From the NCBI GenBank assembly GCA_945865865.1, contig CAMBEX010000001.1, positions 1 to 48,939 on the forward strand: DNA of 48,939 bases, written 5' to 3'. Shown here piece after piece: positions 3,668 through 15,263 of the stretch (position 1 is its first letter; every line of letters begins with the position of its first letter). Made by a program: the position numbers and the translations under genes. The notes beneath the pieces were generated by a model, which had not been told where the DNA came from, ran no database searches, and worked only from the letters and a program-made list of their open reading frames with translations. Origin of the DNA: Bdellovibrio sp. ZAP7 (lineage in GTDB: Bacteria; Bdellovibrionota; UBA1018).

Positions 3668-3693
3668 TCGAGTTTTCTGGTTTCAAAATCAAA

Positions 3694-3738
3694 GGCCTGG
3701 GGAAGCGATTCCCTGGGCCTTTTTTTATATTTTTTTTG
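3694..3738 (+). terminator. Rho-independent terminator after rpsI (possibly bidirectional)
   Basis: GGCCTGGGG (3694-3702) pairs with CCCTGGGCC (3711-3719): 9 bp including two G-U pairs, with an 8-nt loop. It is followed by TTTTTTTATATTTTTTTT. An A-rich tract precedes it, so it could also act on the minus strand. Confidence 0.7.
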
Positions 3739-3774
3739 GAAAAGAGAGGCAGGCGTCCCGGTGGACCGCTTGCC
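3739..3774 (-). terminator. Rho-independent terminator ending the five-gene signalling operon
   Basis: Read on the minus strand, GGCAAGCG (3774-3767) pairs with CGCCTGCC (3755-3748): 8 bp including one G-U pair, with an 11-nt loop. It is followed by UCUCUUUUCC and starts 10 nt after the TAA of the REC-PilZ gene. Confidence 0.6.
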
Positions 3775-3783
3775 TGTTCCGTC

Positions 3784-4527
3784 TTAGTTGGAGTCGGGGA
3801 TGTAGGCTTTGGTCGTGAGCGCGTTAATCCGTTCAATCATCTCGGCTCGACATTTGTCTGAGAGGCTGAAAATCTCGACGCCGATTCCATCAGGCAGGGT
3901 AGTCATCTGATGACCAGAATTCGCCTTAGGTTGGCGACGAATCCATCTCACGACTCCGGTTCCTGAAATTTCCATTTGGCCTCGGACCTCAGTGATCAAA
4001 AAGTTTACTGTTTGTCCCACAGACGGTAATGGCGCTTGAGGTTTGAGCTCAGTGATTGGGAGAAAAAATCCACCCCTGCCGAGAGACAGCAAGCTTCCTG
4101 AAATATGCGCGCAAAGGTTCGTTGATGGAGCTGGCGCCTCGGGTCGGCACTTCCAGCGTTCCTCCATGGGCGAGAGGCATCGATGGATCAGCTCCACGAG
4201 CTGGGCTCTTTTGAACGGCTTTGAAAGGAGGCCGTCTGCGCCCTTTGCATAAAGTTCCTGAATTGAAAATTGCTCAAGTCCCGTCATGAAAAGGAATGGC
4301 TGCAAGCCCGGATCTCTCGCCCTCACCCAGTCCAGCAGATAGACTCCAGGCAATCCCGGCATTCGGATATCCGAGACGATCAAGTCGATAGTTCGACTAC
4401 TCAGAGCGTCAACGGCTTCGGTCACATTCTTTACAAAGATGATCTGATGTCCAAGCTGGCTCAACCTGGGCAAAAGCGCCTCTCGAATGTCCTGCTCGTC
4501 GTCCACAAGGAGAATGGTGGCGCTCAC
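3784..4527 (-). CDS. response regulator: receiver (REC) domain + C-terminal PilZ-like domain
   Basis: REC: ILLVDDEQD..., DLIVSDIRMPGLPG, FLFMTG, LSKPF. The C-terminus has PilZ topology: RWKCR (RxxxR), then LSLGRGGFFL, ...GTGVVRWI..., DGIGVEIFSL. GTG start in a GTGA overlap with the upstream ORF. Confidence 0.8.
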   Translation of the reverse strand: MSATILLVDDEQDIREALLPRLSQLGHQIIFVKNVTEAVDALSSRTIDLIVSDIRMPGLPGVYLLDWVRARDPGLQPFLFMTGLEQFSIQELYAKGADGLLSKPFKRAQLVELIHRCLSPMEERWKCRPEAPAPSTNLCAHISGSLLSLGRGGFFLPITELKPQAPLPSVGQTVNFLITEVRGQMEISGTGVVRWIRRQPKANSGHQMTTLPDGIGVEIFSLSDKCRAEMIERINALTTKAYIPDSN

Positions 4528-4742
4528 AGTTTTGCTCCCAGGGTGTTTCGACGGTCTTCCAAAATTTTCTGAACGGCCTCGAGTGCGCGCATGATTTGTT
4601 CAAGCGCTGGAAGATCCGGACCGGTTTGGCCGTCCGTTTCGTTCTTTTTTTGAATCAAATCCTCCAAGGTAAAAATCGCGGCGGCTAGTGGGCTAGCAAT
4701 CGCATGAAGTGTGTCTCGTTCCTCGCCCAATTGAACGCTCAT
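4524..4742 (-). CDS. 72-aa stand-alone DHp-like (histidine-kinase H-box helical hairpin) protein; function unknown
   Basis: LHAIASPLAAAI (His13) aligns with the H-box of the adjacent kinase (AHEINNPLTVI). A Gly/Pro loop and a second helix (LPALEQIMRALEAVQKILEDRR) follow, and there is no ATPase domain. The ATGA overlap with the kinase stop and the GTGA overlap with the next start argue that it is translated. Confidence 0.55.
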   Translation of the reverse strand: MSVQLGEERDTLHAIASPLAAAIFTLEDLIQKKNETDGQTGPDLPALEQIMRALEAVQKILEDRRNTLGAKL

Positions 4743-6340
4743 TCGGTGACCACCCCGCGGGTTGGAAGGGTAATCACAAAACGCGTGTTCGGCGCTTGAA
4801 GGTCCACGGCCAAGTCACCACGGTGAGCGGTGATGATCCCCTTAGAAACGCTCAGGCCCAATCCGGTTCCCTTGCCGACTTCCTTGGTGGTGAAAAACGG
4901 AATAAAAAGTTTCTGAAGGACAGTAGGGTCGGTAATTCTTCCGCTATCGCTGACGGTGAGCTGAATGACACTTCCCGCATCGATTAGTTTGACCTCAACC
5001 CAAGAGTTGGGTGAGTCGATTACGGCATCAAAGGCATTGTTCAGTAAATTGAGCAGCACCTGCTCGATTTGAATTTCGTCTCCCTGAATCGAGCTCGCGC
5101 TCTCAGGCACAATGATCCGTAACGGGATGCCGTGCTTTTTGAATCTTTCGTTGCAGAGGGCGAGCGTGTTTTGAATCACTTTGCTCAGGTCTACCGATGC
5201 AAAGGGGGCATCGCTTCCGTCCCGTGAAAAATCACGCAGTCCCCGCACGATCTTGGCGATTCGGTCAGAAGTAGCCTCAATTCGATGAGCGAGTTTTCCG
5301 GCATAGGCATGATCAAACTGTTGTTCAGCTACGAGGTCCTGAAGTTCTTCAGAGGTGGCAGAAATCACAGTGAGCGGGTTGTTGATTTCGTGTGCGATTC
5401 CGGCAGCCATCTCTCCGAGTGAGGCAAGTTTTGAACTAGCGAACATTCGTTGCTGTTGGTCGGCGATGGTCTGGGTCCTCTCTTGCACTCGGGTTTCCAA
5501 GGATTCGTTGAGGCGGCGAAGCGTCTCGGCGGACCTCCTGAGGCGCACGAGCGCAAAAATCGTAGCCGCACCAAAAACGAGCGCCAACAAGAAAAGTGCG
5601 GAACTAAAGGCATTGGATCTCTCCTGATCCTTGCGATGCTGAGTGGAGTAGGCGGCAAAGAGTGAGTCAGCATGGTGAGAGGTCGGAAGTGCCAACAGTT
5701 CAGAAACGAGCTCATCCAATAGAGTTTTCTGTGTAGCAATGAGCTTGGCATGTTTCAAAAAGCCCTCTGTGCCTTTCGAAAGGGACCTCGAATTGGATAG
5801 AAAATTTATGAGGGATAAAATTTGTTCTTTGAGGTCTTGGCTTGCGCTGGCGTTGTAAATAAAAAGTTTGTGAGTCAGTGTTTCAGCCCGGTTACGCAGG
5901 GATAATTGTCCCGGGCGAAAGTCGGCGTCGCTGAGTGCGCTGGGCAGGTAATTGAGCGAGTTCTTGAGCACGGAGTTGTTGGACTTGAACTCTTCGATCA
6001 ACTCGATTTTTCGGCTAAAAACCGACTCAAAGAGCTTGAGTTCGGGGGTTTCGTTTGCGGGACCTTTCTTGATTTCCGTGACGGTGTCCTGAATGGATTC
6101 TGCGGCCTGTACGATCGAATCGTAGTTGGGGTGGGAGCGTAGTCGCGCTTCAAGTACCTGGCTGGTCAGCACCGCATCGAGTTCCTTGAGGGTTTTGAGC
6201 GTGGACGCAGTATGCGTGTACTCCCCGAGGTCGCGGAGGTGGGCTTTGTATAAGAGTCCTGCGCAAACAATCAGCAGGAGCATTCCCCAAGCAAAGTGAG
6301 GGACTTTCAGTTTCGGTTTGAGCAGAGTATTTAGATTCAC
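4739..6340 (-). CDS. membrane sensor histidine kinase (HisKA + HATPase_c) with an all-helical periplasmic sensor domain
   Basis: TM1 FAWGMLLLIVCAGLL, a predicted helical extracytoplasmic region of about 200 aa, then TM2 ALFLLALVFGAATIFALV. H-box AAGIAHEINNPLTVI, N-box LLNLLNNAFDA, G-boxes VSDSGRI and GTGLGLSVSKGII. GTG start in a GTGA overlap with the upstream gene. Confidence 0.9.
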   Translation of the reverse strand: MNLNTLLKPKLKVPHFAWGMLLLIVCAGLLYKAHLRDLGEYTHTASTLKTLKELDAVLTSQVLEARLRSHPNYDSIVQAAESIQDTVTEIKKGPANETPELKLFESVFSRKIELIEEFKSNNSVLKNSLNYLPSALSDADFRPGQLSLRNRAETLTHKLFIYNASASQDLKEQILSLINFLSNSRSLSKGTEGFLKHAKLIATQKTLLDELVSELLALPTSHHADSLFAAYSTQHRKDQERSNAFSSALFLLALVFGAATIFALVRLRRSAETLRRLNESLETRVQERTQTIADQQQRMFASSKLASLGEMAAGIAHEINNPLTVISATSEELQDLVAEQQFDHAYAGKLAHRIEATSDRIAKIVRGLRDFSRDGSDAPFASVDLSKVIQNTLALCNERFKKHGIPLRIIVPESASSIQGDEIQIEQVLLNLLNNAFDAVIDSPNSWVEVKLIDAGSVIQLTVSDSGRITDPTVLQKLFIPFFTTKEVGKGTGLGLSVSKGIITAHRGDLAVDLQAPNTRFVITLPTRGVVTE

Positions 6341-7311
6341 CTCGCGTTCCCCTCTGGAGTCTTTCCAGTGAGTGAGCGCAGGAACCTCGAAATCAGTTCG
6401 ATGTCTTTCGCCGAGAGGTCTCGTCCTAGCTGGTACTTGCCCATGATCTTCACGGCATCTTCAATCGTGGAGGCGGATCCGTCGTGAAAATAGGGAGCAG
6501 TCAGCGCTACATTGCGGAGGCTTGGTACTTTAAACCGATGCTTGTCGCTCTCCTTCTGGGTGACGTTGAACCGGCCAAGGTCCCCTCGGGTGAGCTTTTT
6601 TCGGTCGGAGAAAATATTGCCCATGACCCCAAAAACCTGAAACATATTTCCGCCGATGTTTCTACCCTGGTGGCAGGCGATGCAGCCATAGTCCTTGAAC
6701 CGGCGGTAGCCTTCTCTCTCTTGACCGTCCAGTGCGTGAGTTTCGCCTCTGAGAAATCGATCGAATTTTGAGTCGGGAGTCGCCAAGCTCCGCTCGAAAG
6801 TGACAATGGCATTGCGAATGTTATTTTCGTTGGGCTGACTTGAATAAACTTTTTTAAACTCAGCTAGGTAGGCTGGGTCCTGCTGAAGTTTTTGAATGAT
6901 CTGCACCCAAGTCGATGCCATTTCGTTTTCACCATGAAGAGGGCCGTCGAGTTGCTCCTCCAGAGACTCAGCCCTGCCGTCCCAGAACTGCTTGAAATTG
7001 AGAGCACTATTGAAAACCGAAGGAGTATTGAGTTCGTTCTTTCGACCATGAATACCGATCGCCAGGGATTTTCCGTCAGCCCCGCCCCTTTTGAAATCGT
7101 GACAACTGGCGCACGAAATCGAGTTATTGGCAGAGAGAATCGGGTCATTGAAGAGTCGTCGTCCAAGCGACACCTTTGTCGGATTGAGATCTGTTGGGAT
7201 TACGATCGGCTCGATGGGTTCGCTCGTAATGCCGGTCGCGGGACTGAGAAAGAGATGCGCCACGAGGATCATGGCAAGTCGCATGTTGTTGCGCCTCACT
7301 CTCGCCCTCAC
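6337..7311 (-). CDS. secreted di-haem cytochrome c peroxidase / MauG-family protein
   Basis: Signal-peptide-like N-terminus (MRLAMILVAHLFLSPATG). Two CxxCH haem motifs (CASCHD and CIACHQG). CCP-family blocks NTPSVFN, FWDGRA, FKVPSLRNV, APYFHDGS. The GTG at 7311 overlaps the upstream stop; the ATG at 7284 is an alternative start. Confidence 0.88.
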   Translation of the reverse strand: MRARVRRNNMRLAMILVAHLFLSPATGITSEPIEPIVIPTDLNPTKVSLGRRLFNDPILSANNSISCASCHDFKRGGADGKSLAIGIHGRKNELNTPSVFNSALNFKQFWDGRAESLEEQLDGPLHGENEMASTWVQIIQKLQQDPAYLAEFKKVYSSQPNENNIRNAIVTFERSLATPDSKFDRFLRGETHALDGQEREGYRRFKDYGCIACHQGRNIGGNMFQVFGVMGNIFSDRKKLTRGDLGRFNVTQKESDKHRFKVPSLRNVALTAPYFHDGSASTIEDAVKIMGKYQLGRDLSAKDIELISRFLRSLTGKTPEGNAR

Positions 7312-8720
7312 GTTGCACCTGCTTTTCGTCTTAGGGTGTTGAAAAGCTCCAGATTAGAGGGGTAGCGAAAAAGAGAGATCAGGGCCTTCATGCAGTCGTG
7401 ATCAAAGCGCTCGACACCGATGGAGAGTATTCTATTGATCGCGTTTTCTGCTGTCATGGGCGGCCCAGAGGACGTTTGCATGGCGAGTTTGCAGAACTCG
7501 TTGGCAAGACATACGACCCGCGACATGGGGTGGATTTTATCCTTTCGAAGTCGGGATGGAAAACCAGAGCCGTTTTGATTTTCGTGGTGCTGGTGCACGA
7601 TCTGGAGAATGTCGGTGGGGATGCTAGAAATCTGAGCCAGGATCTCAGTGCCACGGCCCGTGTGGCTTTCGTACAGGATGACCTCTTCAATGGTCAATTC
7701 AGAGCGTGCTTTTTTAAGAATCGAAGGCGAAATTTCTTTTTTTCCGATGTCGTGAAAAAGCGCGCCGGCAGCCACTTTGAAAAGGTTTTGTGGGTTTTTC
7801 CAATGGAGTGCTCTTGCGATGAAAGCGGAGTAAAAACTCACGGCCACGGAGTGAGCGTAGAGTGGCTCTGAGTGTGACGCTAATGCGGTAAGAAGGTGAA
7901 GGAGTTCGGGTTCGTCACTGAGTGCTGAAAGTGTCGATTCAACGATCGTACAGGTGTTGCGATATAAGTTTTCGTCGAACTCGCTTTGGTAAAGCGCTCT
8001 GAGCACGGACTCAGATGCAACCTTCAAAAACTGAATTTTTCGATCGCGAGTGATGAGCGCGTTCGAGGTGAGTGCTTGAGCAACCGAGATATTGAAGCCG
8101 ATGTATTTCCGGTAGTCTTCCTGGGTGAGGTAGAGAAAAAACAGGCCTTTTTCGCGATAGGAGCGAATGCGCTCGATGGAGATGTCCTCGCCTCCGTGTG
8201 CGACTCTCAGATATTTTTCGGCTGACAGTCGGACATGAATGTCGTAGCGGATCTGGCTTCCGGAGACGAAGTCATCGATTGGAATTCCGCAGTAGAGGCT
8301 ATCCAGATGAGCGGGCTTTGCTTTGGGTTCCAGCCCAGAAAAGCAAGCCGAGAGGGCTTCTAGAATCGCCTCTGCCTTGAACGGCTTTGGCAAAAATGCC
8401 TTCGCGCCCAGGTTGTAAGCTTCTTGAGTTTCAAGAAGGTCTGCAAAGCCCGTGATCAAAATCACCGGCATGGGGCGAGTTTCATTGATCCACTTCAGGA
8501 GCTGAAGGCCGTTGAGTTCGGGCATCTGAATGTCTGAGATTACGGCTGAGTACACTGAGAGCGCGATGAGTTGCTGGGCGTGTTTTGCGTTTTCTGCGCA
8601 TTCCACTTTGTAACCATGGCTCTCGAGACAGCGGCTGAGCGCAAGCCTGAAGTAATAGTCGTCATCCACTAATAGAATTTGGCGCTTGGGCGATGGATCA
8701 GTGTTTTGGGTCGAAGTCAC
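7308..8720 (-). CDS. response regulator: REC + HD-GYP-type domain (putative c-di-GMP phosphodiesterase)
   Basis: REC: ILLVDDDYYF, AVISDIQMPELNG, ILITG, LPKPF. HD-GYP: ALFHDIGK and HQHHENQNGSGFP (GYP appears as GFP). GTG start at 8720 preceded by GGAGAA with a 9-nt spacer. Confidence 0.88.
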   Translation of the reverse strand: MTSTQNTDPSPKRQILLVDDDYYFRLALSRCLESHGYKVECAENAKHAQQLIALSVYSAVISDIQMPELNGLQLLKWINETRPMPVILITGFADLLETQEAYNLGAKAFLPKPFKAEAILEALSACFSGLEPKAKPAHLDSLYCGIPIDDFVSGSQIRYDIHVRLSAEKYLRVAHGGEDISIERIRSYREKGLFFLYLTQEDYRKYIGFNISVAQALTSNALITRDRKIQFLKVASESVLRALYQSEFDENLYRNTCTIVESTLSALSDEPELLHLLTALASHSEPLYAHSVAVSFYSAFIARALHWKNPQNLFKVAAGALFHDIGKKEISPSILKKARSELTIEEVILYESHTGRGTEILAQISSIPTDILQIVHQHHENQNGSGFPSRLRKDKIHPMSRVVCLANEFCKLAMQTSSGPPMTAENAINRILSIGVERFDHDCMKALISLFRYPSNLELFNTLRRKAGAT

Positions 8721-8732
8721 AGCGAGCGATTC

Positions 8733-8762
8733 TCCGAAAAGTTTTCTTAATTACTTTTCGGA
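8733..8762 (-). promoter_or_regulatory. perfect 10-bp inverted repeat (TCCGAAAAGT-N10-ACTTTTCGGA) overlapping the Shine-Dalgarno of the REC-HD-GYP gene
   Basis: Arms at 8733-8742 and 8753-8762 are exact reverse complements. On the mRNA strand the 3' arm ...ACUUUUCGGA runs into the GGAGAA SD. It could be an operator or an RBS-occluding hairpin. Confidence 0.5.
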
Positions 8763-8805
8763 CTGCCCGGGCCGTTGCTAAAGGGGAAGTCGTTAAAACC
8801 ACAGG

Positions 8806-8849
8806 AAAAAATGCGGCACAGCGCGGCGCTCCGATCGGCCTATGCCGCA
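8806..8849 (-). terminator. Rho-independent terminator of the upstream hypothetical gene
   Basis: TGCGGCA (8849-8843 on the minus strand, including the last codons and stop) pairs with TGCCGCA (8818-8812). This is a 7-bp perfect stem with a 24-nt partly self-pairing loop, followed by AUUUUUU. Confidence 0.5.
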
Positions 8850-9433
8850 CGGGCAATCGGCTTGGCCTCGGCCTCGTAAGCCAGGGCGACACACTCCAAA
8901 ACCCGTCCGTACTCGTGCGCGGCTTTGATGCGCTCAGCTCTCAGGAGCTCGTGTTTGTAAGCGGGTTCCGCGAGTTTCTCTAAATGTTTGCGACCGCGGT
9001 TCAAATACAACTTCATTTCAGGGGGCATCTCGCTCATTCCCGGCGGACAGTGGCGTGCACAGGACTCGAGAAGGTCAGCGGTCGTGTCCTCGCGTTCACG
9101 CAAGCTGTACTCATCGAGGGCGCCCTCAAGGTAAGGGAGCTCGCTTGAGCGTGGCTCCAGGTAAGCAATCTTGGCTTCATGCCAAAAGGCGCGCGCCAAG
9201 TGTTTGGCGGTGCGCGCCCATCTCTCTGCAGCCAGTCGGTCGCCGCTTCGAAGGGCATTAAAACCACGCTTGTAGATCGTGAAGACCTCGTCGGAATGAA
9301 CGCCGGCAATCGAATGACGGTCCCAAAAGTGAGTCACTCCGACCTCGATGGCGCAGTTATATGCTTTTTTGAGTTCGTGCTCCGCGTTTTCGGGGCCATG
9401 AGTGTGAGACTCGGGAGTTCGTAATCGTGTCAT
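8840..9433 (-). CDS. hypothetical all-helical protein (no family recognised)
   Basis: Long ORF with its own terminator and no signal peptide or TM segment. The ATG at 9433 (MTRLRTPES...) is preferred over the TTG at 9454. No motif I can assign. Confidence 0.55.
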   Translation of the reverse strand: MTRLRTPESHTHGPENAEHELKKAYNCAIEVGVTHFWDRHSIAGVHSDEVFTIYKRGFNALRSGDRLAAERWARTAKHLARAFWHEAKIAYLEPRSSELPYLEGALDEYSLREREDTTADLLESCARHCPPGMSEMPPEMKLYLNRGRKHLEKLAEPAYKHELLRAERIKAAHEYGRVLECVALAYEAEAKPIARAA

Positions 9434-9481
9434 GCGAGCAGGTGGTGCAATCAAAGTACCAGAGTGCGATAATCAGCAGGA

Positions 9482-11653: not shown

Positions 11654-13135
11654 TCAGCTGTAATCCCGCGCGGTAATCCCGTATTTTTCGAGCTTTCTGA
11701 GCAGCGTTTTCTTGGGAATGTTTGCGTGCAGAGCAGTTTGGTTGATGCGGCCTTTGAACGTCTTCAACGCGCTGATTAGAAACTGTCGCTCGAACTCCTC
11801 TTTGTTGGCCTGAAAGTCCAACTTGCTGATGTCGAGCTTGAACCCGCGTCCCAGGCTGGCGTCCGTCGGGACTGCTCCAGGCGACAGGCAGATCATCGCC
11901 TCGGGAGCCTCGTGGTCCGTGTATTCCGAGAGATTGGACGTGTCATTTTTGGCTGGCGTGAGCAAGCGGCCTCGGAGCACTGACTCAGGAAGACTCGGTA
12001 TCGTGAGCTGATTTCCTGACTCGATTACAAACGCGTGTTCGATCACGTTTTCGAGCTCCCGGATATTTCCAGGCCATGAGTGGTTCTTGAGTGCCTCCAT
12101 CGCGTCTGCCGCAAGTGCCGTGATGCTTTTTCTGTGCTGCTGATTGAACTTCTCGATGAAGTACTTTGCCAGCACCTCGATGTCGTTCTTACGCTCACGG
12201 AGGGGCGGAAGCTGAATCGGCAATACATTGAGGCGGTAAAAAAGGTCCTCGCGAAACTCGCCCTTACGGATCATGTCTTCGAGGTTTCGATTGGTCGCCG
12301 CGACGATGCGGACATTGACCTCGATCTCGCGGTTGGCACCGACCGGGGTAAAGCGTTTTTCCTGCAGAACGCGTAGAAGTTTGACCTGCATTCCGGCTGA
12401 AACGTCGCCGATCTCGTCCAAGAACAGGGTGCCGCCGTCGGCATACTGAAACTTTCCGATCTTGCGGCTGTCGGCTCCAGTAAATGCGCCTTTTTCGTGT
12501 CCGAAAAATTCGCTCTCAATCAGGTTTTCAGGCACCGCTGAACAGTTGATGGTCACAAATCGATTGTCTTTGCGTGGGCTGTTGTGATGCAGCGCCTGCG
12601 CCACCAGCTCCTTGCCCGTGCCGCTTTCGCCACGGATGAGAACGGCGGTGTCCACACGCGAAAGTTTATCAATCACGCTGAAGATGCGCTTCATCTCGGA
12701 GCTCTGACCGATGAAGTCGGTACCATTAGGTAGGCGAAACACCGGAGCTGAGAGGGTGATGTTTTTGACCATGGAGTGGGCTTTGAGCGCCTTGTCCACA
12801 AGGTAAACAAGGTTTTCGGCCTTGATCGGTTTCTCAAGATAGTTGTAGGCGCCATGGCGTGTGGCCTCGACGGCGTCACGCACATTTGAAAAGGCGGTCA
12901 GTACGATCGCAATAATGGATGGATCGTGGGCTTTGATTTCCTTGAGGGCCTCGAGCCCGGACATTCGGGGCATGTTGACGTCCAGAAGTACCAGATCGTA
13001 GCGCCCAGCCCGAATGCGGTTCACACCCTCTTCGCCATCGCGAGCCTGATCCACGAGGTAGTGGCTCTCCGAGAGGGCCGAGGCTACGGCAAGACGCAAA
13101 TCCGCATCGTCATCAACAACTAGAACTTTATACAT
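11654..13135 (-). CDS. sigma-54-dependent response regulator (NtrC family: REC + AAA+ + Fis-type HTH)
   Basis: REC: VLVVDDDADL, LVLLDVNMPRMSG. AAA+: GESGTGKE (Walker A), ESEFFGHEKGAFTGA (GAFTGA sigma-54 contact loop), LFLDEIG (Walker B). C-terminal HTH: NQTALHANIPKKTLLRKLEKYGI. The ATG at 13135 has a GAGGA SD and overlaps the kinase stop by 8 nt. Confidence 0.92.
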   Translation of the reverse strand: MYKVLVVDDDADLRLAVASALSESHYLVDQARDGEEGVNRIRAGRYDLVLLDVNMPRMSGLEALKEIKAHDPSIIAIVLTAFSNVRDAVEATRHGAYNYLEKPIKAENLVYLVDKALKAHSMVKNITLSAPVFRLPNGTDFIGQSSEMKRIFSVIDKLSRVDTAVLIRGESGTGKELVAQALHHNSPRKDNRFVTINCSAVPENLIESEFFGHEKGAFTGADSRKIGKFQYADGGTLFLDEIGDVSAGMQVKLLRVLQEKRFTPVGANREIEVNVRIVAATNRNLEDMIRKGEFREDLFYRLNVLPIQLPPLRERKNDIEVLAKYFIEKFNQQHRKSITALAADAMEALKNHSWPGNIRELENVIEHAFVIESGNQLTIPSLPESVLRGRLLTPAKNDTSNLSEYTDHEAPEAMICLSPGAVPTDASLGRGFKLDISKLDFQANKEEFERQFLISALKTFKGRINQTALHANIPKKTLLRKLEKYGITARDYS

Positions 13136-15161
13136 AGGTGCTTTCCTCACTGGATTTGCCCGAGTCTTCGGGCATTGAAACGGTTAAGCCGGGGCGGATC
13201 ATCGCAGCCGGAGGGAGCGTCGGTAAAATGGGGAGAAGAATTCGAAACGTACTCCCGATTCCCTGCTCGCTCTCAACTTCTACGCGACCCTGATGTGCCT
13301 CGATAAAAAACTTGGACAAATAAAGGCCAAGGCCTGTGCCGGAAGTCTGAGCGGTGGCCTGATTTTTAGCGCGATAAAAACGCTTAAAGAGGCTCTCAAT
13401 CTCATCAGGAGAGAGACCGACGCCTTGGTCGCGAACGGAAATTTGCACCCACTCGTTTTTTTCGACCGACAATATCGAAATCTCTGAGCCCGGATCAGAA
13501 TACTTGATCGCGTTGTCGATCAGGTTGTTCAAGACCTTGGTGATCATTGACACGTCTACCTTGATCGGAAATAGCGGTTCAAGGTTCATCGTGATTTTGC
13601 AGTTTTTGGCGCGCGCTTGAGCGCGAAACCCAGCGGTCGCTCTCTCGATGATGGAGTTGACGTCCTTAGACTCAAGCCTCAAGTGTATGTAGTTGGACTC
13701 CACCTTGGCGAGTTCAAGAATACTCGAGATGAATCTATTGAGCTCGTCCGTGGACTGAATGATGTGATTGAGGGTCTCTTTGTCGCGATCGACGAGTCGA
13801 TCCGCGGCCTTTTTCAAAAGCACTTCCGCTAGGCCTTGGATTCGCGCGACCGGAGTCTTGAGATCGTGCGTGACCAGCGACATAAAGTTGGTTTTAAGTT
13901 CCTCGACTTGTACGAGGAGTTTGTTTTTACGCTGGTAGTCCCAGCGTTTTTTATACTCACGGATCAGGCGGTAAGGCACCGCTAGGTAGTATCCCAGAAA
14001 TGCCCCAATCAGCGGCTGGCTCACGCGAATCCAGAGTCCGCTGTGGCCGCCAAATCCATAAAAAACCAACTGAGTGAAAGTCAGAAACAGGATAATTACG
14101 GCGACGGTGGCAAAGAGCCCATTGAGTGGGCTCAGGATCATGACGGCAGCAATCACAAATACACTCAGCAAAAATATCGCAAGGACATTGACGTAATGAG
14201 GTGTCTTGGCGACTCCGTCGTCGTTGATCAGGGAGTCCAGAATATTGGCGTGGACTGCCAGTTTTGGATTTGAAAAAGAAGCCGACGAGTAAGGAGTGAG
14301 CGCGTAGTCCTGGGAGTCGTCGCGGGTGAGCGTGCCCACCAATACGATTTTATCGCGAAGGGAGTCGATCGGCGCCGTTCCGTTCAGGACGTCAAGAAAC
14401 GAGAGACGGCGGTAGCGTTCTGAATCCGAAAGCTGCGAGGCGTGGCTCAAGGCAACGTCGCCGTGATAACGAAAATTAAAATAATTGGCGTCCACTTCAG
14501 GAACAGAAAAGCTGCCGCGAGGCAAATGCCCCTCAGAAATCAGTCCCAGTTTTCGGGCCAGTTCGAAGTGAAAAACGGATTTATCATACAGGTGGGTAAG
14601 CGCACTGCGAGTGACCTTGTCTCTCGCAAATACATTTCCATCCTTGTGAATGAGTGCAAGTGCGTGTGGCAATGCGCTCAGCGGATACGGAGGCAAGACC
14701 TCGCCCGTGACATCGAACGAGGTGCCCATAATAACTGGCGTCCCTCCTCGCTCCATCCGAATGGCGATCTCTGTGAATTTCTGTCCAGGGTGCGAACGAA
14801 ACTGCTGTGGATAGAGTTGGCTGACCCGGTTCATGTCGACGAGGTAGCCCACGCCGCGCGGGGAATACTTTTCGAGCGACTCCAGGAACCGCGCATGAAC
14901 CTCAAGCGATAGGGGTGAGAGGTCGTCGAGAGTCGCCGTAGTGGCATCGTCGAGTGTAATGAGGGTAATTCGCGAATCCGGGCGGGCCTGAGGGCCTTTG
15001 GCCATTCTAAAGTCGTAGAGACCCGCCTCAATTATGTTGAATTCAAAATTGAGCAGCAAAGCCGTGAGAATGCCTGCCCCTGCAAGAATGCTGAGCGGGG
15101 TCTTGAAGTGTCGTAGCGACAGCTTCTGCAAATTACTGAAGTTCAACTTCCAAAGGGACAT
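13128..15161 (-). CDS. CHASE2-domain sensor histidine kinase
   Basis: N-terminal TM, then a CHASE2-like extracytoplasmic region (RITLITLDDATTATLDDLSPLSLEVHARFLESL...), three TM segments, HisKA (SLVTHDLKTPVARI) and HATPase_c (NLIDNAIKYS, VRDQGVGL, GTGLGLYLSK). The start is placed at ATG 15161 because the GTG at 15194 lies inside a sigma-54 promoter core. Confidence 0.85.
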   Translation of the reverse strand: MSLWKLNFSNLQKLSLRHFKTPLSILAGAGILTALLLNFEFNIIEAGLYDFRMAKGPQARPDSRITLITLDDATTATLDDLSPLSLEVHARFLESLEKYSPRGVGYLVDMNRVSQLYPQQFRSHPGQKFTEIAIRMERGGTPVIMGTSFDVTGEVLPPYPLSALPHALALIHKDGNVFARDKVTRSALTHLYDKSVFHFELARKLGLISEGHLPRGSFSVPEVDANYFNFRYHGDVALSHASQLSDSERYRRLSFLDVLNGTAPIDSLRDKIVLVGTLTRDDSQDYALTPYSSASFSNPKLAVHANILDSLINDDGVAKTPHYVNVLAIFLLSVFVIAAVMILSPLNGLFATVAVIILFLTFTQLVFYGFGGHSGLWIRVSQPLIGAFLGYYLAVPYRLIREYKKRWDYQRKNKLLVQVEELKTNFMSLVTHDLKTPVARIQGLAEVLLKKAADRLVDRDKETLNHIIQSTDELNRFISSILELAKVESNYIHLRLESKDVNSIIERATAGFRAQARAKNCKITMNLEPLFPIKVDVSMITKVLNNLIDNAIKYSDPGSEISILSVEKNEWVQISVRDQGVGLSPDEIESLFKRFYRAKNQATAQTSGTGLGLYLSKFFIEAHQGRVEVESEQGIGSTFRILLPILPTLPPAAMIRPGLTVSMPEDSGKSSEESTYV

Positions 15162-15178
15162 GGTCGGGACAACTAAAG

Positions 15179-15193
15179 GCAACTGCCGTGCCA
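15179..15193 (-). promoter_or_regulatory. sigma-54 (-24/-12) promoter core TGGCAC-GGCAG-TTGC
   Basis: The reverse complement of 15179-15193 reads TGGCACGGCAGTTGC, an exact match to the TGGCAC-N5-TTGC consensus. It sits immediately 5' of the CHASE2-HK / NtrC-type operon. Confidence 0.65.
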
Positions 15194-15263
15194 CTGAAAT
15201 TCAGCGAAACGGTGAAGTAACCGTCTGCAATTACAGCGTTAAATAGGGGGTATTTAAGAATCA

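Follow-up and report, generated by a model that had tools for sequence, protein, structure and literature searches.

Introduction

What does a membrane kinase perceive when a periplasmic haem peroxidase is encoded immediately upstream of it, and where does its signal go when the same operon supplies two receivers and a lone, histidine-bearing hairpin? These questions are raised by five genes on the minus strand of a 48,939-nucleotide stretch of DNA from Bdellovibrio sp. ZAP7 (contig CAMBEX010000001.1, positions 1 to 48,939), which is called the window here. In the order of transcription, the genes encode a receiver (REC) protein with an HD-GYP-type domain (gene 1); a periplasmic di-haem cytochrome c peroxidase or CCP (gene 2); a membrane sensor histidine kinase with a DAHL domain (gene 3); a 72-residue protein that resembles only the DHp hairpin of a kinase (gene 4); and a second receiver protein with a diverged, PilZ-like domain (gene 5). 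To our knowledge, the sensing of hydrogen peroxide and redox state in the periplasm is poorly understood, unlike sensing in the cytoplasm by OxyR and PerR.

As judged by comparison of sequences, the core of the operon is an old, two-gene CCP–DAHL sensor module. The reading that we favour, and consider rather probable, is that the locus is a composite signalling operon, in an uncultured, Bdellovibrionota-like bacterium, built around this sensor. A first-pass annotation of the same DNA had described a self-contained, five-gene cassette wired into cyclic di-GMP (c-di-GMP) turnover and read-out; its observation was largely right, and it claimed more than is warranted for the cassette as a unit and for the roles in c-di-GMP signalling. 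The most valuable content of the locus is the near-obligate coupling of CCP and DAHL across bacteria, together with the family of stand-alone DHp proteins.

The DAHL kinase and its probable peroxidase partner

The DAHL domain, which had gone unnoticed in the first-pass annotation, is the key to understanding the locus. The kinase that carries it (gene 3; 4739–6340, minus strand; 533 residues) begins with a transmembrane helix, followed by the periplasmic DAHL domain (approximately residues 37–245), a second transmembrane helix, a coiled coil and the HisKA and HATPase_c domains; there is no receiver domain. In Pfam, DAHL (PF19443) scores 133.2 bits against a cutoff of 38, and HisKA (46.5 bits) and HATPase_c (68.6 bits) are above their cutoffs as well. 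The kinase boxes read HEINNPL, NLLNNAFDA, FIPFFTTK and GKGTGLGL. An AlphaFold2 model of residues 1–274 (pLDDT 88) is all-helical with seven helices, and the DAHL domain is flanked by hydrophobic helices in both the sequence and the model. The model suggests that the DAHL region is an HBM/TorS-like helical bundle, its best matches among PDB folds being the HBM domain of McpS (TM 0.46–0.52) and the TorS sensor 3i9y (probability 0.99), with weak Foldseek E values of approximately 0.007–0.04. Residues Y73, D74, E116, F118, K119, S120, N127, S128 and H197 are invariant in the DAHL alignment.

The probable partner of this kinase is encoded by gene 2 (6337–7311, minus strand; 324 residues). By its residues, the product is a canonical bacterial di-haem CCP that is predicted to be catalytically competent. 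It matches Pfam CCP_MauG (PF03150) with 194 bits against a cutoff of 25.6 and, among PDB sequences, 9qdt with an E value of 1.3e-82 and the Nitrosomonas CCP 1iqc with 4e-74. Its two CxxCH haem motifs (CASCH and CIACH), the inter-haem Trp in QFWDGRA, the Q...ENEM pocket and the Met axial ligand in AVKIM all align with 1iqc and 9qdt. The same haem-binding and catalytic residues (both CxxCH motifs, the FWDGRA Trp, Q...EM and AV..M) are kept across 75 DAHL-linked CCPs.

That the two proteins belong together is indicated by a genome scan. Here, a DAHL-domain alignment of six sequences was used against one genome per species (185,579 species), and 78 loci were retrieved via the motif [VI]ExFKS[KRN]N[SA][VI], so that they possibly represent a subfamily. 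A CCP homologue (E values of about 1e-60 to 1e-120) lies immediately upstream on the same strand in 74 of the 78. Three of the remaining loci are at contig edges and one is a true exception, which makes 74 of 75 testable loci. The four-nucleotide overlap between the CCP and DAHL genes that is present in the window recurs in 49 loci of the scan. The loci come from Cyanobacteria, Acidobacteriota, Planctomycetota, Actinomycetota, Nitrospinota, Armatimonadota, Myxococcota, Bdellovibrionota and the Alpha-, Beta- and Gammaproteobacteria, and cover at least ten phyla by our count. The earlier proposal that the periplasmic partner of the kinase is a haem protein is therefore backed by the position of the CCP gene in nearly every testable locus. 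Pairwise distances of the CCPs and of the DAHL domains are correlated (r = 0.80, 75 pairs), which is consistent with inheritance as a unit, with the proviso that species phylogeny confounds this correlation.

The cytoplasmic outputs attached to the DAHL domain are diverse. Among 66 proteins, HATPase_c is found in 48, GGDEF in nine, EAL in seven, an adenylate/guanylate cyclase in five and MCP in one, and many also contain PAS, GAF, REC or Hpt domains. Across these 66 proteins and the 75 testable loci, the CCP is the sole constant partner of the domain. As many of the outputs (MCP, GGDEF, cyclase) cannot control transcription of ccp, the CCP is not merely a regulated target gene. Instead, because it adjoins nearly every DAHL sensor whatever the output, the CCP is likely to be the periplasmic input partner, or co-sensor, of the DAHL kinase.

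Two departures from the common arrangement were seen. In an uncultured Chromatiaceae (L010:2628-5585), the only DAHL protein among the 75 testable loci that lacks an adjacent CCP gene has a divergent, patatin-like gene upstream. In one Bdellovibrio metagenome-assembled genome, the CCP 5' of the DAHL kinase is an 84-residue fragment (L004:5620-5874, and likewise in L005 and L074). This fragment may be a pseudogene, and thereby a natural CCP-less variant of the sensor, or an assembly error.

The pairing has been described in Campylobacter jejuni, where the CCP gene docA directly precedes docB/Tlp10 (PMC3156733). Tlp10 is the bearer of the founding DAHL domain (PMC9796306). Description of the pairing beyond Campylobacter was not found in a literature search whose coverage was incomplete, so that an earlier description is possible. 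The search found no papers joining the DAHL domain with a histidine kinase, and for DAHL together with cytochrome c peroxidase it retrieved only authors named Dahl.

A stand-alone DHp protein family

Gene 4 (4524–4742, minus strand) encodes a protein of 72 residues in which His12 lies within the H-box motif LHAIASPL. A word-index search with this protein returned only the query itself, and an exhaustive phmmer search identified nine relatives of 68–82 residues. The family shares the motif ER.FLHD[IL][AS]SPL...DRR, in which the His is invariant. Matches to Pfam HisKA that are weak and below the curated cutoff are found for seven of the ten family members (best E = 2.5e-4). When the family profile was compared with PDB sequences, only coiled-coil noise was returned. 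Further support came from hhalign, which aligned the family with the DHp domains of the DAHL kinases at a probability of 92% (E = 6.6e-7) and placed H12 in register with the kinase His. This alignment supports the initial description of the protein as an extra, His-bearing hairpin that consists only of a DHp domain. The family appears to comprise small, new, stand-alone DHp proteins of approximately 70–80 residues.

The genomic company of the family is receivers. A metagenome scan yielded 12 further loci, and in seven of these the gene is beside receiver proteins, the neighbours being a REC-PilZ protein, a lone REC, an HD-GYP protein or a pair of OmpR-type regulators, one to each side. The gene is also upstream of a REC-PilZ gene in L003, L088 and L086, as it is in the window. 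Judged by these neighbours, the mini-protein is a portable companion of receiver proteins and is not specific to the CCP–DAHL sensor. That it acts as a genuine phosphotransferase, and not as a phosphatase or inhibitor, is possible and somewhat doubtful.

At L087:6223-7969, a gene for the mini-protein lies between two OmpR-type response regulator genes, with no kinase gene within 7 kb, which gives the locus the look of a receiver–His–receiver series.

The two receiver proteins

Both receivers of the window keep the acidic pocket, the phospho-accepting Asp, the Thr and the Lys. The initial count of one non-hybrid kinase and two receivers is confirmed, the phospho-acceptor residues being intact in both.

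Gene 1 (7308–8720, minus strand; 470 residues) is composed of a receiver (Response_reg, 88.6 bits), a middle domain like that of Bd1817 and an HD-GYP-type HD domain (HD_5, 85.2 bits; HD, 45.3 bits). The best solved relative of residues 128–421 is Bd1817 (PDB 3tm8, E = 8.6e-15), and the best match in NCBIfam, at 144 bits with a cutoff of 400, is a model for c-di-GMP phosphodiesterases of the NosR family. The metal ligands H, HD, H and HH(E) are present, as AHS, HDIGK, ESH and HHE align with V-cGAP3 and PA4781. Alignment also confirmed that GFP replaces GYP, and PA4781 likewise aligns with GFP at this position. REC-HD-GYP genes accompany the CCP–DAHL kinases in the Bdellovibrionota loci L004, L006 and L007. 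In Sideroxydans, Ideonella and Nitrospinota, the REC-HD-GYP gene is directly upstream of the CCP gene; the HD-GYP domain is canonical in these three, and their DAHL kinases are hybrids that include REC, plus Hpt in two of the three loci. Overall, REC-HD-GYP and CCP–DAHL kinase occur together in seven other loci from four phyla.

Gene 5 (3784–4527, minus strand; 247 residues) contains a receiver (Response_reg, 71.6 bits) and a C-terminal domain with the motifs RWKCR ... SLGRGG ... GVVRW ... GIGVE. Here, the RxxxR motif is RWKCR and lies about 19 residues before SLGRGG, where the D/NxSxxG motif has Ser for D/N and Gly for Ser. The syntenic homologue in L003 matches PilZ at 34.3 bits, which is above the cutoff, and the C-terminal domain of gene 5 matches this homologue at E = 8e-10. 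As the homologous protein passes the PilZ cutoff, a PilZ fold is indirectly indicated for gene 5. A search for homologues with the C-terminal domain itself returned none, and a single-sequence AlphaFold2 model of the whole protein was uninformative (pLDDT 38). The proposal that gene 5 encodes a PilZ-like c-di-GMP receptor holds for the fold; the binding motifs are half-degenerate and are not kept in relatives. The domain is best described as having a PilZ-like, diverged fold with putative c-di-GMP binding. The receivers of the REC-PilZ proteins in L003 and L088 share 45–61% identity with the single-domain receivers encoded after the kinase gene in L004, L006 and L007, so that this kinase family has two recurrent receiver partners.

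The REC-PilZ-like proteins of the window (3784–3810, minus strand), L003 and L088 end in a common, extreme C-terminal motif, [KA][AI][YF]IP[DK][SN]. This YIP motif may be a docking tail.

A composite operon and its proposed pathway

Gene-neighbourhood comparison contradicts the idea of a self-contained, conserved cassette. The full set, in this order, was seen on copies of this contig alone, and other loci carry mixed modules: L003 has a CCP-kinase pair with a divergent mini-protein, REC-PilZ and REC, and L004, L006 and L007 each have a CCP-kinase pair with REC and REC-HD-GYP. A conserved five-gene unit was thus rejected, as the comparative loci contain none.

In the composite operon that we favour, the CCP would be the input element, its haem state being set by hydrogen peroxide and periplasmic electron donors. 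Large changes of conformation accompany changes of redox state in bacterial CCPs. The double helical bundle of DAHL would read the haem state of the CCP, as TorS reads TorT, and would set the balance between the autokinase and phosphatase activities of the HisKA kinase. We offer peroxide or redox state as the signal tentatively, at slightly less than even confidence.

Phosphoryl groups would then pass to the two receivers. The REC-HD-GYP protein would hydrolyse c-di-GMP or, in the manner of HnoD, regulate another enzyme, and the REC-PilZ-like protein would probably be a protein-binding adaptor that perhaps still binds c-di-GMP. In the least certain step, the 72-residue protein would dimerise into a four-helix bundle and trade phosphate with the product of the adjacent receiver gene. 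It could do so as a Spo0B-like or EnvZ-domain-A-like phosphotransferase or phosphatase, resulting in a relay or a phosphate sink. As there is one kinase, two intact receivers and a DHp-like His protein, branched or relayed phosphotransfer is plausible. The hybrid, REC-Hpt-containing DAHL kinases of the proteobacterial cousins demonstrate that multi-step relays exist in this setting, so that an "unbundled" relay is plausible here as well.

These elements can be joined into a bolder proposal. The CCP–DAHL pair would be an unrecognised, pan-bacterial, two-protein periplasmic haem sensor, in which a catalytically competent CCP perceives peroxide or redox state on behalf of kinases, chemoreceptors, nucleotide cyclases and enzymes of c-di-GMP turnover across ten or more phyla, and which here feeds an "unbundled" phosphorelay via a DHp-only phosphotransferase. 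We regard this larger proposal as attractive, with doubt slightly ahead of belief.

Points against the proposal and alternative explanations

Several observations weigh against the proposed pathway, beginning with its input. The motif-based retrieval and the phylogenetic confounding given above limit what the genome scan can carry. Contact between the CCP and DAHL is proposed on the strength of adjacency. According to Elgamoudi 2021 (cited in PMC9796306), small molecules bind directly to the DAHL domain of Tlp10, so that the CCP may not be the ligand-bearing part. The G1 box of the kinase (approximately residues 460–470) is DSGRI, where all 13 aligned homologues have DSGxG; this atypical box may alter ATP binding or kinase activity. 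For the mini-protein, the window copy has no match in Pfam, including HisKA, and has HA rather than HD at and after the His. No CCP, DAHL or kinase gene was present in any of the 12 metagenome loci, so that a specific link to the window kinase is no more than putative.

The outputs are also affected. In gene 1, the GYP motif and the last metal-binding Asp are both replaced, with LANEF in place of ADxFDAL, and the four Bdellovibrionota homologues all have Asn instead of this Asp, as does Bd1817. The claim that this protein degrades c-di-GMP is weakened by this substitution, which makes catalysis uncertain. By analogy, an HnoD-like regulatory role is possible. In gene 5, the PilZ match (PF07238) falls short of the cutoff of 22.5, with 13.7 bits and E = 0.08. 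In an alignment of three homologues, the L003 protein has RKESR and NLGRGG and the L088 protein lacks RxxxR.

The sharpest challenge to the CCP as input is that it is merely a co-expressed detoxifying or respiratory enzyme, with DAHL sensing small molecules alone and the adjacency reflecting shared physiology. We consider this quite improbable. It would be in keeping with a canonical CCP that retains all catalytic residues, with the binding of several small ligands reported for Tlp10, and with hydrogen peroxide as a possible electron acceptor for the C. jejuni CCPs (PMC13462783). However, the adjacency in 74 of 75 loci is mostly accompanied by translational coupling and is independent of the type of output. 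Furthermore, MCP, GGDEF/EAL and cyclase outputs are unable to regulate ccp transcription, and Pfam identified no DNA-binding regulator among the proteins of the window operon. Finally, the C. jejuni CCPs, DocA included, make no contribution to hydrogen peroxide resistance in strain 81-176 (PMC4518328). In a different departure from peroxide reporting, the CCP could be MauG-like and modify a DAHL residue post-translationally, or make the true ligand by oxidation. Membership of the CCP_MauG family, matches to the NCBIfam MbnH and MauG models that are below their cutoffs, and the invariant polar or aromatic DAHL residues with no assigned role (Y73, D74, E116, K119, S120, N127, S128 and H197) point in this direction. 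The CCP is, however, far nearer to true peroxidases, which it matches at E = 1e-82 to 1e-62, than to MauG, for which the E value is only about 1e-25, and the peroxidase-type Met ligand is kept. A MauG- or MbnH-type maturation enzyme was rejected as an identity for gene 2 on these grounds, and this explanation is scarcely credible.

The role of the 72-residue protein is contested on a different footing. It could be a phosphatase that serves only the REC-PilZ protein, or it could inhibit the kinase by heterodimerising with its DHp domain, instead of being a phosphotransferase; either is rather unlikely. Isolated DHp fragments, such as domain A of EnvZ, have phosphatase activity, the window copy lacks an acidic residue after its His, and the gene overlaps the stop codon of the kinase gene. 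These features suit a phosphatase or inhibitor, whereas the family-wide invariant His and its flanking motif argue for phospho-His chemistry. Most relatives are beside receivers in loci without a kinase, which argues against a kinase-specific inhibitor, and the position of the gene between two OmpR-type regulators in L087 fits a shuttle. It is also conceivable, if very improbable, that the five genes are separate modules brought side by side by chance, with no common pathway. Such packing would explain why the exact set is confined to copies of this contig and why the mini-protein and REC module occurs elsewhere without CCP or DAHL. Against it, the genes are on one strand with junction gaps of 23 nucleotides at most, L003 independently joins a CCP–DAHL kinase with the mini-protein and REC-PilZ, and REC-HD-GYP is found again with CCP–DAHL kinases in the seven other loci described above. 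The composite operon built around the CCP–DAHL sensor is the reading that we retain.

Operon boundaries and neighbouring genes

The window is identical to part of the ENA metagenome contig ERZ27280197, k141_895294, in which independent gene callers identified the same five genes. The initial report of five co-directional, minus-strand open reading frames is borne out by these calls and by the list of open reading frames. The domain content was also as first described, since Pfam found REC plus HD, CCP_MauG with two CxxCH motifs, HisKA plus HATPase_c, a 72-residue frame with no hit, and REC plus a weak PilZ.

Four junctions with four-nucleotide overlaps had been reported. The sequences are present as GTGA (7308–7311), GTGA (6337–6340), ATGA (4739–4742) and GTGA (4524–4527), and the first of these depends on the choice of start. 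It requires a GTG start for the CCP gene; the gene callers choose the ATG at 7284, which results in a protein of 315 residues and a gap of 23 nucleotides. A Shine–Dalgarno-like sequence precedes both candidates. Overlaps of four nucleotides are the commonest junction type in bacterial operons, and they therefore indicate tight packing and nothing unusual.

The limits of the operon needed revision. The upper limit had been placed at 8762, and the coding sequence stops at 8720. Upstream of gene 1, the fold of the proposed intrinsic terminator at 8806–8849 is no more stable than that of shuffled sequence (z = -0.8), and a terminator scan missed it. The 119-nucleotide stretch 5' of gene 1 (8721–8839, minus strand) is the presumed promoter region, although neither a sigma-70-like nor a sigma-54-like site was recognised in it. 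Directly past the last stop codon, the proposed downstream terminator (3739–3774, minus strand) does exist as a hairpin followed by CUCUCUUUUCC, and it is modest (-17.7 kcal/mol, z = -2.1). The stronger element is a terminator-like, bidirectional hairpin at 3691–3722, which was found by the terminator scan, has a 14-bp stem and a T run, and is common to the convergent rpsI gene. On the minus strand its z score is -3.2, and none of 200 shuffles folds equally well. Rfam has no RNA family match anywhere in the window.

Just upstream of the operon and co-directional with it is an open reading frame (8840–9454, minus strand) for a hypothetical protein of 197–204 residues that has no Pfam match. As the terminator between it and the operon is weak, read-through into the operon is conceivable. 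A sigma-54-like sequence, TGGTAC-N5-TTGCA (9447–9461, minus strand), is 13 nucleotides before the ATG at 9433 of this frame. Divergent from it is a gene for a MATCAP-family protein (PF08014; 9482–10774, plus strand). A second two-component system is encoded approximately 3 kb from the operon (11654–15194, minus strand). It consists of a histidine kinase of 688 residues (13128–15194, minus strand) and an NtrC-type regulator with REC, sigma-54 activator and HTH domains (11654–13150, minus strand). A perfect sigma-54 promoter consensus, TGGCACGGCAGTTGC, is found at 15179–15193 (minus strand), at the very start of the longest kinase frame. Across the window, sigma-54 motif matches are at chance level overall. 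On the other side of the operon, the precomputed Pfam annotation of the source contig lists the conserved rplM–rpsI, arginase-family, BamA-like and TamB genes.

Significance

If the proposal is correct, periplasmic peroxide sensing would have a simple solution, namely a peroxidase that also serves as the subunit with which membrane receptors bind their ligand. The near-universal adjacency of CCP and DAHL makes the idea testable in Pseudomonas, Polaromonas, Acaryochloris and C. jejuni. A signalling role would also explain the puzzle of DocA, which provides no protection from peroxide and yet is needed, together with a chemoreceptor, for colonisation of chicks. The DHp-only family is a possible minimal element with which two-component specificity could be studied or engineered. 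Peroxidases, hydrogen peroxide and the DAHL domain all go unmentioned in a census, published in 2022, of the sensory inputs to c-di-GMP signalling (PMC8846402).

Relation to known systems

The first-pass annotation knew of no characterised system with this list of parts. For the full list this is still so; the core pair has a counterpart in DocA (Cj0020c) and DocB/Tlp10 (Cj0019c) of C. jejuni. Both proteins are required for colonisation (PMC3156733, PMC4518328, PMC13462783), and cj0020c overlaps and is translationally coupled to cj0019c (PMC13462783, July 2026). In that paper it was suggested, speculatively, that DocA signals peroxide availability to Tlp10. The likeness, which is drawn from published work and from the name of the Pfam domain, is that a CCP gene overlaps a downstream gene for a DAHL receptor, as at the GTGA of 6337–6340 in the window. 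In contrast, the C. jejuni output is a chemoreceptor that feeds CheA, whereas the window has a HisKA kinase, two receivers and a DHp mini-protein.

A soluble periplasmic partner that receives the signal and is read by a membrane kinase is also the principle of TorT–TorS and of LuxP–LuxQ, and TorS has a stacked, helical-bundle sensor. Here, the partner is a redox enzyme with two c-type haems and not a solute-binding protein. In addition, TorS, as a hybrid kinase, includes a relay of its own, and the fold match to it is weak, at the E values given above.

Control of a branching kinase by a separate haem protein is known from the H-NOX/HnoK–HnoB/HnoC/HnoD nitric oxide network of Shewanella and Vibrio, in which several receivers are served and HnoD is a REC protein with a degenerate HD-GYP domain that tunes c-di-GMP turnover (PMC6335343). 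NosP-associated systems can be listed alongside it; the best NCBIfam match of gene 1 is the NosR-family model given above. The haem sensor of the H-NOX network is cytoplasmic, b-type and nitric oxide-sensing, whereas that of the window is periplasmic, c-type, di-haem and peroxidase-like, and the window operon has neither an EAL partner nor a DNA-binding regulator.

For the mini-protein, the comparison is with Spo0F–Spo0B–Spo0A, with ChpT relays and with domain A of EnvZ, in which the His of a dimeric DHp hairpin could shuttle phosphate between receivers. Spo0B and ChpT keep a degenerate, ATPase-like domain, whereas the window family is a bare hairpin. Gene 1, in turn, resembles Bd1817, the unconventional HD-GYP protein of Bdellovibrio bacteriovorus, in its middle and HD domains and in the Asn that takes the place of the last metal-binding Asp. 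It differs in having an N-terminal receiver and HHE...G.GFP, as Bd1817 lacks the aromatic residue, and identity between the two is low. Taken together, the operon is a variant of two known themes, partner-assisted two-component sensing and c-di-GMP networks controlled by haem sensors.

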